DNA of 64,000 bases from Rhodospirillales bacterium (GTDB lineage Bacteria; Pseudomonadota; Alphaproteobacteria; Kiloniellales; JAKSDN01), in contig CBDDCC010000013.1 of assembly GCA_965225935.1 (NCBI GenBank), positions 517,100 to 581,099 on the forward strand. The letters run 5' to 3'. Under the pieces are notes generated by a model. The model was not told the origin of the DNA, did no database searches, and saw nothing but the letters and a program-made list of their open reading frames with translations. The first letter of the stretch is position 1. Every line of letters begins with the position of its first letter. Both the position numbers and the translations under genes were made by a program. Positions 27,568 to 32,918 of this stretch are shown here, piece after piece.

Positions 27568-28320
27568 GTGAGCGCGACCGTCAGTGCCGCGCTGCTGATC
27601 ATCGGCAACGAGATTCTCAGCGGCCAGACCCGCGACGCCAACCTGGCGTTTCTCGGCGAGCGGCTGAACGCGGTCGGGGTGCGCCTGCTGGAAGCGCGGG
27701 TCGTCCCGGACGACGAGAGTGTCATCGTGGCCTCGGTGAACGCGCTGCGCCGCGGCTACGACTACCTCTTCACCACAGGCGGCATCGGCCCCACCCACGA
27801 CGACATCACCGCGGCCTCGGTCGCCAAGGCCTTCGGCGTGCCGCTGATCCTCAATCCCGAGGCGAAGCGGATCTTGGAGGGCTACTACAAACAGGGCGAG
27901 CTGAACGAGGCCCGTCTCCGCATGGCCCACACGCCCGAGGGCGCGAGCTTGGTCGAGAACCCGATCAGCGGCGCCCCCGGTTTCCAGATGGAGAACGTCT
28001 TCGTCCTGGCCGGCATCCCGGCGGTCATGCAGGTCATGTTCGAAAGCCTCAGCCACCGGCTGACCGGCGGCCGGCCGCTGGTCTCGGAGACCGTGGTCGC
28101 CTACCTGCCCGAAGGGCGGATGGCCGAGGGCCTGGGCGCCATCCAGTCCGCCAGCCCCGACGTGGAGATCGGCAGCTATCCCTTCCACCGGGAGGGCCGC
28201 TACGGCGCACGATTGGTGATCCGCGCGACCGAGCCGGCGCGTCTGTCCGCCGTCCGCAGCGAGGTCGAGGCCCTGGTGTGCGCCCTCGGCGCCGAGCCCG
28301 GGAAGACCCTTGATGGGTAA
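27568..28320 (+). CDS. CinA-like molybdopterin-binding domain protein
   Basis: IIGNEILSG.T.DAN, TTGGIGPTHDDIT and IGSYP motifs. Confidence 0.9.
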   Translation: MSATVSAALLIIGNEILSGQTRDANLAFLGERLNAVGVRLLEARVVPDDESVIVASVNALRRGYDYLFTTGGIGPTHDDITAASVAKAFGVPLILNPEAKRILEGYYKQGELNEARLRMAHTPEGASLVENPISGAPGFQMENVFVLAGIPAVMQVMFESLSHRLTGGRPLVSETVVAYLPEGRMAEGLGAIQSASPDVEIGSYPFHREGRYGARLVIRATEPARLSAVRSEVEALVCALGAEPGKTLDG

Positions 28321-28335
28321 AGGAAGGCCGGCCGG

Positions 28336-30192
28336 TTAAGGCGTCATGCCGAGGTCACGGAGACGCCGGCCGGCCCATTCGTGGCTGCGCGAGGCGGCCT
28401 TGCGGTACCAGCTCACGGCCTGGTCCAGATCCCGCTCGACGCCCCAGCCGTTCTCGTACATCTGCCCGATGTTGAACTCGGCGTAGCCGTAGTCCCGGTC
28501 GGCGGCCAGCTGGAACCAGTAGAGCGCCTGGCCATAGTCCTGCGGCACGCCGCGGCCCTGGCGGTAGAGATAGCCCAGGTCGTTCATGCCGTTGAGATGA
28601 CCCTGCTCGGCGGCGCGGCGGTGCCACAGAGCCGCCTGCATCAGATCGGGCTCGCTGCCCTCGCCGCGCTCAAGCATCCAGCCGAGGCGGTTCTGGGCGC
28701 CCGCATGGCCGCGCTTGGCCGCTCGCAGGTAGATGCGGAAGGCGAGTCGCAGGTCCTTCGGCTCGCCCCGCCGGTAGATGCGCTCGGCCTTCTGGAAGAG
28801 GTCCTCCGGCTGGACCGTGAGGCCCGACACCAGCCGCTCGATCAGCCCGCTTTCCTGAGGCGCCGCGCCGGGCTCGGCCGGTTCAGCGGCCGTCTCCGCA
28901 GCCTCGTCGAGCGGGTCGGTCAGCTCCAGGACGTCCTCAGGCTCTTCGGGCGTCTCGGCGGCAGTTGGCGCTGGCGCGGCAGACCTCTCCTCCCGGGGCG
29001 GCGGTGCGGGTGGTTCGGCGGCCGGCGGGGACGGGGAAGCGGCGGCTTCCGACGCAGGCTCGGACGGGCCCGCCCCTGCTATCGGAGGTGCCGGCGCTGG
29101 CTGGGGCTCCGCTGGGGCGGGCTCTGCCTGGGGCTCCGCCGGATCCTGTGGCAGGGCCTCGTGGTCGCGGTTGGAGACCAGGCTGAGCATGGCCGCCCGG
29201 GCCGCCGACTGGGACCTGGGCGCCGTGCCGTTAAGGCCGGTCGCCACCAGCGAGACGCGGATCCGGCCGGACCGGCCGGTGTCGAGGGCGGAGCCGAAGA
29301 TAAGCTCGGCCGAGGGGTCGATCCGCTCGCTGATGTGGGCGACAGCCTGTTCGACCTCGTGCAGGGTCAGGTCCTCGCCGCCCGTCACGTTGATCAGCAG
29401 GGCGCGCACCTGGTCGAGCGGCAGCCCTTCCAGCAGCGGATTGCCGACCGCCGCGGCGGCCGCCTCGATCGCCCGGTTCTCGCCCTCCGCCTCGCCGGCG
29501 CCCATCAGGGCCCGGCCCATATCTTCGATCACCACGCGCACGTCGGCGAAGTCCAGGTTGATGAGGCCCGGCAGCAGGATCAGGTCGCTGACCGAGCGCA
29601 CGCCGTCCTGCAGCACCCGGTCGGCCAGGGCGAAGGCCTCGCCCAGGCTGGTCCGCCGGTCGACCACCCGGAACAGGTTCTGGTTGGGAATGACCAGCAG
29701 GGTGTCCGAGTAGCGCTGCAGCTCCTGCAGCCCGGTCTCGGCCGTGCGCATGCGCTTGGGGCCCTCGAAGTCGAAGGGCTTGGTCGCCACGGAGATGGCG
29801 AGGAGGCCCGCCTCGCGCGCGGCTCGGGCGATCACCGGCGCGCCGCCGGTCCCGGTGCCGCCACCCATGCCGGCGGTGATGAAGACCAGGTTGAAGTCCT
29901 CGAGGGCGTCCAGCAGATCCTCCAGCACCTCCTCGGCGGCCATGCGGCCGACCTCGGGCTGGGAGCCGGCGCCCAGGCCGCCCGTGGTGTTGCGGCCGAG
30001 CTGGATGCGGTTCTCGCAGGGCGAGCCGGCGAGCGCCTGGACGTCGGTGTTGGCGACGATGAACTCGACGCCCTCGAGCCCGGCCCGGATCATGGCGTTG
30101 ACGGCGTTGGTGCCCGCGCCGCCGACGCCCAGGACCGCGATTCGGGGCCGCTGGCCGTCCGCAGACTCGCCCGCCGTCAGCTTGAGCACCAT
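28336..30192 (-). CDS. ftsZ: FtsZ paralog with Pro/Glu linker and C-terminal Sel1 repeats
   Basis: GVGGAG.NA, NTD.QAL, GLGAG, AGMGGGTGTG, PFDFEG, T7 loop NLDFADV and RVSLVATG; ends in about 3.5 Sel1 repeats with no IPAFLR-type peptide. Confidence 0.9.
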   Translation of the reverse strand: MVLKLTAGESADGQRPRIAVLGVGGAGTNAVNAMIRAGLEGVEFIVANTDVQALAGSPCENRIQLGRNTTGGLGAGSQPEVGRMAAEEVLEDLLDALEDFNLVFITAGMGGGTGTGGAPVIARAAREAGLLAISVATKPFDFEGPKRMRTAETGLQELQRYSDTLLVIPNQNLFRVVDRRTSLGEAFALADRVLQDGVRSVSDLILLPGLINLDFADVRVVIEDMGRALMGAGEAEGENRAIEAAAAAVGNPLLEGLPLDQVRALLINVTGGEDLTLHEVEQAVAHISERIDPSAELIFGSALDTGRSGRIRVSLVATGLNGTAPRSQSAARAAMLSLVSNRDHEALPQDPAEPQAEPAPAEPQPAPAPPIAGAGPSEPASEAAASPSPPAAEPPAPPPREERSAAPAPTAAETPEEPEDVLELTDPLDEAAETAAEPAEPGAAPQESGLIERLVSGLTVQPEDLFQKAERIYRRGEPKDLRLAFRIYLRAAKRGHAGAQNRLGWMLERGEGSEPDLMQAALWHRRAAEQGHLNGMNDLGYLYRQGRGVPQDYGQALYWFQLAADRDYGYAEFNIGQMYENGWGVERDLDQAVSWYRKAASRSHEWAGRRLRDLGMTP

Positions 30193-30320
30193 GGATAGGT
30201 TCCCCTGCGACTCGCGTCGGTCCGGCGCTGGCGGCCCCGACCGACTCGAAGAAGAAGGAACCTTAGTGGGGAAGGGAATCGCCCGCAACCAAGTTAAGCT
30301 CCGGTTCTATTCGTCCCGGA

Positions 30321-30335: not shown

Positions 30336-30565
30336 GGACTCGTCGGAGCAGGACTGGTCCTTGATTACGGCGATGCTCTAACATTAGGTGCGAGTCCTTG
30401 AGGGCCGTCGCTGCTGACGATGCCATTAGTCCTCTGAAACCACTTTGGCGCTAGAGCCATCGGCCGTTGACAAGCTCCGGTCGCTGAAGTCTTGTGGGGA
30501 AAGAGACCCGGACGGCATTCGGGAGCGGGCGTGACGGGAGGCTCCGCGAAGATGGAACCGGGCGC

Positions 30566-31702
30566 GTGAAAGCGTGCTTCAAAGGTGAAGCGGACAAGCG
30601 GTTCGCCGGCGTGCGGGACGCCTTCGCCCAGAACCTGACCGAGGGACTGGACCAGGGCGCGGCCTTCGCGGTGGTGGCCGACGGACGGGTCGTGGTCGAC
30701 CTCTGGGGCGGCTACGCCGACGCTATGGGCGAACGGCCCTGGACCCGGGGCACCTTGGTCAACATCTGGTCGACCACCAAGGGCGTGGTGGCTCTCGCGC
30801 TCGCCATGCTGGTCGAGCGGGGCGTGCTCGACTACGAGGCGCCGGTGGCGCGGGTCTGGCCGGAGTTCGCGGCGGGCGGCAAGGGCGAGGTCAGCCTGGG
30901 CTGTCTGCTGTCCCACCAGGCCGGCCTGCTCGGCTGCCTCGAGCCGGTGAGCATGGAGGACCTGCTGGCCTGGCGGCCCTTCGTCGACCGACTGGCCGCC
31001 ATGGAGCCGCTCTGGCCGCCGGGCGAGGACTGCGCCTACCACGCGGTCAGCTTCGGCCATCTGGCGGGAGAGGTGCTGCGCCGGGCGGATGGCCGATCGA
31101 TCGGCCGCTTCGTGGCGGAGGAGATTGCCGGGCCGTTCGGCGCCGAGCTCTACCTCGGCCTGCCCCTTTCGGAAGACGCGCGTACTGCCGAGATCATCGC
31201 CGGCCCCGGCTCCGACGACGACCTGATCGAGGCCGAAGGCCGGCCGTTCGCCGAGCTCAGCTATCTCAATCCGCGGATCGACCCGCGCGTGCCCAACTAC
31301 CGGGCCTGGCGTGCCGCCGAGGTGCCATCGGCGAACGGACAGGGGGACGCGCTCGGCCTGGCCCGCCTTTTCGGCGCCCTGGCGGGCGACGGCAGGCTCG
31401 ACGGCAAGCGGCTTGTCGCCCCGGAGACCATCGCGGCCGCGACCGCCGAGCGCTACCGCGGCTACGAACTCTCCTTCGGCTGGCCGATCGCCTTCGGCGC
31501 CGGCTTCATGCTGAACGAGGTGGAGGAGCTCGGTCCCGGGCCAAGGGCCTTCGGGCACAGCGGCTGGGGCGGCTCCTACGCCTTTGCCGATCCGGACGCC
31601 GGCATCGGCGTCGCTTACGTGATGAACCAGATGCTCGGCTTCGGCAACGACTACGATCCGCGCCAGCTGCGCCTGCTGGGGGCGCTCTACGACGCCTTGT
31701 GA
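30566..31702 (+). CDS. Serine hydrolase, beta-lactamase class C / EstA-like
   Basis: S-x-x-K (WSTTK), LSHQAGL, AYH and FGHSGWGGS motifs. Confidence 0.88.
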   Translation: MKACFKGEADKRFAGVRDAFAQNLTEGLDQGAAFAVVADGRVVVDLWGGYADAMGERPWTRGTLVNIWSTTKGVVALALAMLVERGVLDYEAPVARVWPEFAAGGKGEVSLGCLLSHQAGLLGCLEPVSMEDLLAWRPFVDRLAAMEPLWPPGEDCAYHAVSFGHLAGEVLRRADGRSIGRFVAEEIAGPFGAELYLGLPLSEDARTAEIIAGPGSDDDLIEAEGRPFAELSYLNPRIDPRVPNYRAWRAAEVPSANGQGDALGLARLFGALAGDGRLDGKRLVAPETIAAATAERYRGYELSFGWPIAFGAGFMLNEVEELGPGPRAFGHSGWGGSYAFADPDAGIGVAYVMNQMLGFGNDYDPRQLRLLGALYDAL

Positions 31703-31739: not shown

Positions 31740-32333
31740 TCAGTCCTCGCCCGCCGCCGGCCCGGCGAGGCTCTCGGCCTCCTCGGCCAAGTGGTGGCGG
31801 CGCATCAGCGGGGTCTGGGACAGCGCGAAGAGGAGGGTCAGGCCGAGGATGCCGAAGACCTTGAAGGTGACCCAGAAGTCGGTGCTCTGGGTGCGCCAGA
31901 CTGCCTCGTTGAGGCCCGCCATGGCGAGGAAGAAGATCCCAAAGCGGAAGGTCAGCTTGCGCCAGCCCTGATCGTCCATGGACCAGGCCGCGCCCATCAG
32001 GGGCTTCAGGAGCGGCCGCCCGGCGGCGAGGCCCCCCAGCAGCACGACGGCGAAGAGCACCTGGACGATGGTCGGCTTCATCTTGATGAAGGTCTCGTCC
32101 TGGAGCGCCAGGGTGAGCCCGCCGAAGACCGCCACCACGCCGGCGGTGATCAGCGGCATCAGCGGCACCCGCCGGGCGATCGCCAGCGACAGGGCGAGGG
32201 CGACGGCGGTGGCGGCCATCAGCGCGCCCGTCGCCCACAGCAGGTCGGAGAGGACGTAGGCGGCGAAGAAGACGGCGATCGGACCGTAGTCGCTTGCCGG
32301 CTTCAGCCAGGCGGGTTCGGGGCGCGCGCTCAT
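31740..32333 (-). CDS. yciB: Intracellular septation protein A (YciB/IspZ)
   Basis: DYGP..VFF, FGGLTL..D.TFIKMKPT, LNE.VWR and WV.FKVFG motifs. Confidence 0.92.
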   Translation of the reverse strand: MSARPEPAWLKPASDYGPIAVFFAAYVLSDLLWATGALMAATAVALALSLAIARRVPLMPLITAGVVAVFGGLTLALQDETFIKMKPTIVQVLFAVVLLGGLAAGRPLLKPLMGAAWSMDDQGWRKLTFRFGIFFLAMAGLNEAVWRTQSTDFWVTFKVFGILGLTLLFALSQTPLMRRHHLAEEAESLAGPAAGED

Positions 32334-32442
32334 GGACCGCGACCCTAGCGCGCCCCTGGCTCACAAAGCAACGCGGGTGGTGGAGCGAGGCTATTTGAGA
32401 TCTGATAGGACAGCCGGCATCCAAGCAACTGTGAGCCTCGAT

Positions 32443-32733
32443 TCATTCCAGCCCGCGCTTCTCATTGCGCTCTGCCTTGGGCCTTCCCACCCAGTCCCAG
32501 AATCTTTGGAGCAGTTTGCTGTACCCATACAAAGCAAGGCAAAACAGCACGCCGACAATCGGGACTATATAGGCCCCCGGAACCTCTCTCATTTCGACGC
32601 CGAGACTCAGCGTTCCCAAGTAAAAGACAAGAAACGCGGTGCCAATGGACAGGAAAGCTCCGACTGTAAGGTCGAACAGACACCCCGCAACGAGATCTAT
32701 AGCTGCCTCTGACTTCCGTTTGGCCTTCTTCAT
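32443..32733 (-). CDS. Small hypothetical membrane protein in a low-GC patch
   Basis: Two hydrophobic segments; atypical composition. Confidence 0.45.
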   Translation of the reverse strand: MKKAKRKSEAAIDLVAGCLFDLTVGAFLSIGTAFLVFYLGTLSLGVEMREVPGAYIVPIVGVLFCLALYGYSKLLQRFWDWVGRPKAERNEKRGLE

Positions 32734-32918
32734 GACGCCGGTCAGACTGTGTGAACAACGCATCCTGGCATTTGGTGTAGGGATGCTTGTCATGCAAGAA
32801 CTTCCATCAGTGAGTGTGTCTGTGCTTTCGCTTGCGGCGGCCGGGTGAACTCGACCGTGACAGCGGGGCGCCGCCGGTCTATCAGGTGACGATTGCTCAG
32901 ACGCGGGCGAGGGGGACG

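Follow-up and report, generated by a model that had tools for sequence, protein, structure and literature searches.

An alphaproteobacterial FtsZ paralogue, restricted to few lineages, carries a Sel1-repeat solenoid in place of the C-terminal anchor peptide

We analysed a 64,000-nucleotide stretch of DNA, hereafter the window, from Rhodospirillales bacterium (GenBank assembly GCA_965225935.1, contig CBDDCC010000013.1, positions 517,100 to 581,099). Its minus strand encodes a protein in which an FtsZ GTPase core is followed by a disordered linker, a short helix and a Sel1-repeat solenoid (Table 1), referred to below as the fusion protein. An initial annotation, made from the letters and open reading frames (ORFs) of the window, had described it as a stand-alone FtsZ whose C-terminal anchor peptide is replaced by Sel1 repeats. 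We find that the gene is real and conserved. It encodes an FtsZ paralogue of restricted lineage distribution that has gained a new module at its C-terminus, and members of its family are annotated in their sources only as 'cell division protein FtsZ'.

Table 1. Position of the fusion gene, its parts and its upstream neighbours in the window (pLDDT, predicted local distance difference test; AF2, AlphaFold2)
Feature	Coordinates	Strand	Basis and remarks
ftsZ-Sel1 fusion gene	28336..30192	-	618 aa; stop 28336-28338; ORF translation, Pfam Tubulin + FtsZ_C + Sel1, TIGR00065
Shine-Dalgarno-like AGGGGA	30201..30206	-	8 nt before ATG 30192; read from sequence
FtsZ GTPase core, residues 17-320 (Tubulin, FtsZ_C)	29233..30144	-	Pfam, TIGR00065, AF2
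Disordered Ala/Pro/Glu-rich linker, residues 323-446	28855..29226	-	pLDDT <50 (AF2), composition
Short helix motif ESGLIERLVSGL, residues 447-458	28819..28854	-	AF2; compared with canonical FtsZ linker motif
Sel1-repeat solenoid, residues 462-618	28339..28809	-	Pfam Sel1; AF2 pLDDT 96-98
Beta-lactamase-family (serine hydrolase) gene	30494..31702	+	PF00144, 7e-76; between yciB and fusion gene
yciB/ispA (intracellular septation protein A)	31740..32333	-	PF04279, 5.7e-62; two genes upstream of fusion gene

The longest possible frame of the fusion gene opens at a TTG at position 30288. The ATG at 30192 agrees with the N-termini of the orthologues (MVLNLKASES...), and the longer TTG-initiated frame is probably not used. 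Pfam divides the protein into Tubulin (residues 17-177, 4.2e-46), FtsZ_C (residues 226-320, 1.1e-27) and Sel1, the last in three stretches (4.9e-33). Against the NCBIfam ftsZ equivalog TIGR00065 the protein scores 377.3 bits, with a cut-off of 295.2, and a scan of its own genome with the same model gave the gene 379.3 bits. The GGGTGTG signature occupies residues 110-116 and the T7 loop NLDFAD residues 212-217; in 52 aligned family members these columns are invariant, except T115 and A216, which are conserved in at least 90%. Together, the domains, the equivalog score and the alignment bear out the complete tubulin/FtsZ core claimed at the outset. As judged from sequence, the core is shown to retain every GTP-binding and T7-loop signature, and we infer that the protein can hydrolyse GTP and polymerise. 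An AF2 model built from the 52-member family alignment gave pLDDT values mostly of 85-98 in the N-terminal domain of the core; a search of the ESM Atlas with the fusion protein returned no usable match and no model.

The linker that follows (124 residues) consists of 27% alanine, 23% proline and 15% glutamate and has a net charge of -18, so that its description as a disordered Ala/Pro/Glu linker stands while its length is corrected from about 130 residues. Both length and sequence of the linker differ across the fusion family, ranging from 120 to 340 residues. In the short helix at its end, residues 450-458 are modelled with a pLDDT of about 66. This segment (SGLIERLVSGL) had been called amphipathic. 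The hydrophobic moment of ESGLIERLVSGL is 1.39, compared with a mean of 0.86 for shuffled versions, of which 12% reach as high a value. The amphipathicity is therefore weak and statistically not distinctive, and we rejected a membrane-targeting helix at this site; the segment is instead a motif inherited from within the linker of canonical FtsZ, as described below. Outside the FtsZ core the protein has no hydrophobic 19-residue window, in agreement with the reported absence of a transmembrane segment.

The Sel1 tail scores 112.8 bits against PF08238 in three stretches (cut-off 30.7). In the AF2 model, residues 462-613 form four helix pairs and a terminal cap helix, rather than the approximately 3.5 repeats first counted; the first helix pair is too degenerate for detection by Pfam. 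Identity among the Sel1 domains of orthologues is 55-72%; an alignment of eight of them has 63 invariant columns, and the domains end in a family-specific HEWAxxRLxxLG. Sequence matches of the tail in the PDB are to Sel1 proteins only. These results show a well-folded solenoid under strong purifying selection. It runs to the stop codon and the protein ends in HEWAGRRLRDLGMTP, without a [DE]IPAFLR peptide, so the anchor peptide is indeed replaced by Sel1 repeats. Nor is the protein of the truncated FtsZ1/FtsZm type, since the core is followed by the 124-residue linker and a Sel1 domain of about 157 residues.

Such an architecture could in principle come from an assembly chimera or a gene-calling artefact in which part of an ftsZ was joined with a Sel1 gene unrelated to it. 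The sole ground for asking was the contamination estimate of 5.78% for the window's assembly (5.89 Mb in 24 contigs), and we found nothing in favour of it. A separately built Logan contig covers positions 27900-29573 with 0 differences and includes the Sel1 domain, the whole linker and part of the core, establishing continuity across 28750-29250, the segment for which the initial annotation had proposed a check of read coverage. A second Logan contig covers 29544-30700, again with 0 differences. Both contigs come from one run, probably the source of the window itself, in which 99% of the window's sampled words occur, and the break between them falls within the conserved core, in a region alike in both ftsZ copies of the genome. 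The same architecture is present in 64 other protein clusters, as one open frame in 8 of 41 genomes of relatives, and in 17 loci from metagenome-assembled genomes (MAGs). The chimera explanation is refuted, and we put its remaining probability at next to nil.

Scanning the window's assembly with TIGR00065 yielded two FtsZ genes. The canonical ftsZ (locus L001) is located right at the beginning of contig C6; its product has the C-terminus DIPAFLRRQAN, and lpxC is the next gene. On the reverse strand at the beginning of contig C24 lie ddl, ftsQ and an incomplete ftsA, of which the contig end leaves only the first ~66 codons. The division and cell wall (dcw) cluster is present in this genome, split by an assembly gap into ddl-ftsQ-ftsA and ftsZ-lpxC over two contig ends, and the FtsZ of the window is an extra copy, as had been supposed. 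The two cores are 61% identical over 326 residues, and the C-terminus IPAFLRRQAN is common to the canonical copy and 18 aligned relatives. We also observed that the cluster is broken between ftsA and ftsZ, and that the separately built contigs break inside the core of the paralogue as well (~29544-29573); the similarity of the two ftsZ copies may break assemblies.

In the set of 41 relatives, each of the eight genomes with a fusion carries a canonical copy too, with [DE]IPAFLRRQAN at its C-terminus (the copy in G003 runs off the contig end before its C-terminus). Among nine further fusion genomes, all of family f8, a second core was found in six (G059, G061 and G064-G067). Overall, 14 of 17 fusion-bearing genomes have a second FtsZ core, and the three exceptions are fragmented MAGs. 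We propose that the fusion protein is a paralogue whose anchor peptide has been swapped for a Sel1 solenoid, and that it polymerises with the Z-ring and recruits a cytoplasmic partner, a reading in which we place about even confidence. Here the protein would hydrolyse GTP and form polymers; without the anchor peptide it would not dock on FtsA-type tethers, and the solenoid, as a peptide-binding module, would bring a cytoplasmic partner to FtsZ filaments.

We examined the distribution of the fusion in protein clusters, in genomes of the order and class, and in a broad species collection. Among the 120 best of 8000 candidate clusters, 65 including the query combine Tubulin, FtsZ_C and Sel1 (the 64 others at 40-77% identity), and 53 are ordinary FtsZ; the architecture search proposed initially thus returned a family rather than a single case. 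Two close relatives of the fusion, P0062 and P0066, lack a Sel1 annotation and have ends unlike the rest of the family. One stops inside the linker at 386 residues; in the other, the first part of the tail gives way to unrelated sequence, apparently through a frameshift. They may be sequencing errors or decaying copies.

Comparing the C-terminal 164 residues with the 41 same-order genomes gave full-length matches in 8 (196-369 bits), with all remaining Sel1 matches at 114 bits or below. The eight top matches, one per genome, are single open frames of 619-664 residues or more, each with an FtsZ core upstream of the tail. A profile of eight orthologous tails, run over 127 genomes of the order, matched 17 genomes at 283-308 bits. 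Within the window's own family, f1, the carriers belong to genus g1 (3 of 4 genomes) and genus g5 (1 of 1), and families other than f1 and f8 have none; G021, one of the counted genomes, has a canonical FtsZ and no fusion. A further profile match, of 155 bits within a 1199-residue frame in G088, is probably unrelated and was left out of the count. Beyond the order, we sampled 208 alphaproteobacterial families evenly, 400 genomes in all, and scored nine candidates per genome; none matched the tail at E <= 1e-40, under settings that recovered the window's own gene.

A pattern-seeded scan of a collection of 185,579 species returned 36 loci, of which 17 (L013-L029) are 55-72% identical to the tail over essentially its whole length and 19 are generic Sel1 proteins. 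All 17 come from MAGs, titled Kiloniellaceae (7), Kiloniellales (6), Proteobacteria (2), Alphaproteobacteria (1) and Acidimicrobiia (1). Together with the order survey and the protein clusters, they settle that homologues of the fusion exist. The Acidimicrobiia entry, L025, is a fusion gene of clade B (one of two clades of fusion cores, see below) on a 2359-bp contig; it nests among Kiloniellales-type fusions, and the contig is probably mis-binned. MAG G007 carries both a clade-A gene (C120, L004/L013) and a clade-B gene (C229, L028, on a 3.1-kb contig), which could reflect mis-binning or a transferred second copy. Small shares (0.05-0.09) of the window's sampled words also occur in the environmental runs X2, X3 and X8, and a soil contig from X3 reads through Sel1, a different linker (390 vs 276 letters) and then the core, identifying a relative of the fusion gene.

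This distribution bears on whether the fusion protein is a division tuner or negative regulator, which would co-polymerise with canonical FtsZ and dilute its anchor peptides, the Sel1 domain making the regulation conditional on a bound factor. The gene is patchy in family f1 (4 of 13 genomes), as expected of a dispensable modulator, and the protein lacks the C-terminal peptide. Overexpressed truncated FtsZ1 inhibits division in Agrobacterium tumefaciens, and the authors propose that duplicates fine-tune division (10.1101/2025.09.29.679267). Plain truncation would nevertheless suffice to dilute anchor peptides, yet a domain of 150 residues has been kept with its invariant columns, and the gene is near-universal in family f8 (13 of 14 genomes). 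The invariant columns and the prevalence in f8 argue for a positive binding function, and a purely regulatory role appears unlikely to us.

A quick maximum-likelihood tree (LG+G4) was built from 74 trimmed cores over 329 columns. Of these rows, 39 are canonical FtsZ of the order, 24 are fusions, 4 are other paralogues and 7 are FtsZ from other Alphaproteobacteria. Apart from one separate row (P0060), the fusions group in two starred clades. Clade A (7 rows, stem 0.41) unites the window with its genus, with g5 and with database members, and clade B (16 rows, stem 0.044) consists of family f8 and MAGs. When all 24 fusion cores were constrained to be monophyletic, the log-likelihood was 16 units higher than in the free quick search (p-AU 0.76), so that a single origin is not rejected. 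The phylogeny of both cores envisaged at the start therefore yielded two clades compatible with one origin, and the quick tree could not place the fusions relative to the canonical FtsZ of particular families. Both clades change T19 to A or V and E282 to Q, in columns otherwise at least 95% invariant in canonical FtsZ. Because these changes are shared, the Sel1 tails are homologous and the HEWAxxRLxxLG end is common to them, the fusion probably arose once, from a full-length alphaproteobacterial ftsZ.

The linker records how the exchange may have taken place. Canonical alphaproteobacterial FtsZ linkers contain a basic patch followed by [SGN][LIF][LF]x[RK][VMIL][TS]G[AG]A, located 63-140 residues before the C-terminus in full-length proteins of the order and of other Alphaproteobacteria (L001 and L049-L097). 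In the canonical copy of the window's genome this motif is RRKSNSLLAKVTGAARAF (residues ~480-500). A second canonical motif, QPRLTGLDP, lies nearer the tail, and we know of no described function for either. The segment upstream of Sel1 in the fusions (KRRSNGIFAWMTGG, ESGLIERLVSGL) matches RRKSNSLLAKVTGAARAF. It is found 8-12 residues ahead of the first Sel1 helix, as KRRSNGIFAWMTGGG or KKSGGFFSWISSG in clade B and as ESGLIERLVSGL or DSGFIERLVTSL in clade A; clade A has lost the basic patch. Since the fusions keep this motif just before Sel1, the Sel1 module replaced everything downstream of it, including QPRLTGLDP and the anchor peptide. In the proposed mechanism, a solenoid of four repeats would have taken the place of the distal linker and anchor peptide at that point.

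Canonical FtsZ tails in these genomes have three conserved short motifs, and short peptides are the typical ligands of TPR and Sel1 solenoids. Both facts would suit a cross-linker or bundler of Z-ring filaments whose Sel1 solenoid binds the C-terminal peptide or the linker motif of canonical FtsZ in trans. A complex prediction for the Sel1 domain with the last 45 residues of canonical FtsZ scored 0.02 against a mark of 0.32 in a run without controls, and it carries no weight either way. We regard cross-linking as very improbable.

The two clades differ in how far their cores have moved from the canonical FtsZ of the same genome. Clade-A cores, including that of the window, are 60-62% identical to it, with 21 canonical-invariant columns changed, whereas clade-B cores are 75-86% identical, with 3 columns changed. 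Strong divergence in clade A would fit an independent cytoskeletal filament, unrelated to the Z-ring, in which Sel1 fixes the polymers to some structure not involved in division, for example a pole, a complex of the envelope or a storage body; so would the position of the gene outside the dcw cluster and the absence of a C-terminal peptide tying FtsZ to divisome anchors. The near-canonical cores of clade B fit instead continued selection for compatibility with canonical subunits, none of the polymerisation signatures has changed, and other alphaproteobacterial paralogues reach mid-cell (available part of 10.1101/412759). A filament of this kind is therefore improbable in our judgement, at about the level of the tuner. 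For the preferred reading, in which the fusion protein polymerises with the Z-ring, the clade-B cores and the published behaviour of the A. tumefaciens paralogues make co-assembly the most likely mode, and polymers would form inside the canonical Z-ring or next to it, a behaviour shown by those paralogues.

Several observations weigh against this reading. The clade-A core of the window is fast-evolving, and its divergence makes co-assembly less secure for the window's own protein than for clade B. In G060 (81% complete) and G063 (90% complete) the fusion core was the only one found; G062 is ambiguous, since its one FtsZ core and its Sel1 tail are on different contigs. Of the 70 inner branches of the tree 24 are open, and its backbone is poorly resolved. 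Finally, the neighbours of the gene in the window are unmatched in the 14 clade-B loci (L016-L029), save for a weak match of 27% identity to the thiamine pyrophosphate (TPP) enzyme in L021.

In the window, the gene order is radC, map, sfsA, a small lipoprotein-like ORF, a convergent CinA-like gene, the fusion gene, the beta-lactamase-family gene, yciB/ispA and the TPP enzyme gene. The neighbours are thus CinA-like, beta-lactamase-family and yciB genes and, as noted before, not ftsQ, ftsA or lpxC. Three close relatives (L013-L015) have the same order with yciB directly upstream of the fusion gene on the same strand, and tblastn found no match to the beta-lactamase-family gene between yciB and the fusion gene in them; that gene is a local insertion or loss. 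The label 'stand-alone' has to be qualified: in its closest relatives the gene directly follows yciB. In clade B, mazG lies divergently upstream, followed by ydbH-like and DUF1318 genes, and tatD, metG and holB lie downstream. As the neighbours differ between the clades, the gene has no conserved operon partner; it sits among housekeeping genes and not in an island. GC content is even across the fusion gene, and a promoter and terminator scan found nothing beside it. The cumulative GC skew of contig C13 climbs steadily across the gene and has no extremum at that point. A dif consensus had no match with 3 or fewer mismatches in the window, L016 and L026, and none with 6 or fewer in 12 loci; its best match anywhere in the genome had 4 of 19 specified bases wrong, and the consensus may be ill suited to this lineage. 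Elsewhere, a lower-GC stretch at 32340-32810 (0.63-0.66 vs ~0.71), between yciB and the TPP enzyme gene, holds the sole promoter-like site of the scan. It also holds a 116-residue ORF (32443-32793, minus strand) of hydrophobic look and without a Pfam match.

The yciB and ydbH-like neighbours hint at envelope- or lipid-related genes in both contexts. This permits a more specific, and distinctly tentative, version of the preferred reading, in which the usual hub logic of FtsZ is reversed: in mixed filaments the fusion protein would offer a peptide-binding solenoid and bring a lineage-specific cytoplasmic partner to the septum, perhaps one tied to the envelope or lipids through yciB in one clade and the ydbH-like gene in the other. 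If true, the Z-ring would possess a second channel of recruitment, orthogonal to the first.

The bacterial divisome universally docks on the C-terminal peptide of FtsZ, and a conserved FtsZ with a folded protein-binding domain in its place suggests that the filament can be rewired for other cargo. FtsZ-Sel1 is a ready-made system for asking how paralogues share or divide the Z-ring. The sequencing run behind the window's genome appears to be of isolate type, in which case localisation, deletion and pull-down experiments would be feasible. Second FtsZ proteins of other kinds were also seen in the order. In family f2 (L082, G013:C21; L083, G029:C303) they have frames of 858 and 837 residues and a variant anchor peptide, NIPSFLRRTED; in family f3 (L084, G014:C7; L085, G023:C3) they have frames of 679 and 710 residues and lack both an anchor peptide and any additional Pfam domain. 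With several distinct kinds of second FtsZ, this one order is a good group for studying FtsZ diversification.

Among known systems, the canonical dcw FtsZ of the same genome is the closest. It shares with the fusion protein the core, which scores above the TIGR00065 cut-off in the fusion, and the long disordered linker with its intra-linker motif. It differs in having QPRLTGLDP and DIPAFLRRQAN where the fusion has the solenoid; the fusion gene is not part of the dcw cluster, and the core that it encodes has a higher rate of evolution. The truncated paralogues of Hyphomicrobiales and Rhodospirillales (A. tumefaciens FtsZ1 and FtsZ3, and the Magnetospirillum magneticum duplicate) are likewise extra copies without a C-terminal peptide beside an essential canonical FtsZ. 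Two of the three A. tumefaciens homologues co-polymerise and localise to mid-cell, according to the available part of 10.1101/412759. In nearly all known alphaproteobacterial duplicates the GTPase domain is the C-terminus or is followed by no more than a minimal linker (main text of 10.1101/2025.09.29.679267), consistent with the earlier statement that other extra FtsZs of the class are truncated, whereas the fusion family has a linker of 120-340 residues and a folded C-terminal domain. The same main text makes no mention of Sel1, TPR or Kiloniellales. Full-text searching of the literature for an FtsZ-Sel1 architecture gave no description, and PMC7327166 and PMC7159879, in the parts available, contain both words in connection with other proteins. 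Within that literature the architecture is undescribed, as had been suspected.

Sel1-repeat proteins (PDB 6ok3, 4bwr and 1ouv; eukaryotic SEL1L/Hrd3) have the same repeat type, with profile E-values of 2e-89 to 3e-48 to PDB chains. Stand-alone bacterial Sel1 proteins and SEL1L/Hrd3 are mostly secreted, periplasmic or endoplasmic reticulum-luminal adaptors. The Sel1 domain of the fusion is instead joined to a cytoplasmic filament former and ends in its family-specific tail. A helical-repeat adaptor coupled to a filament of the tubulin/FtsZ superfamily is known from Prosthecobacter, where the TPR protein Bklc provides a membrane link for BtubAB (available part of PMC5372463). There the adaptor is a separate polypeptide encoded in the btub operon, whereas in the fusion it is carried in cis on a bona fide FtsZ.

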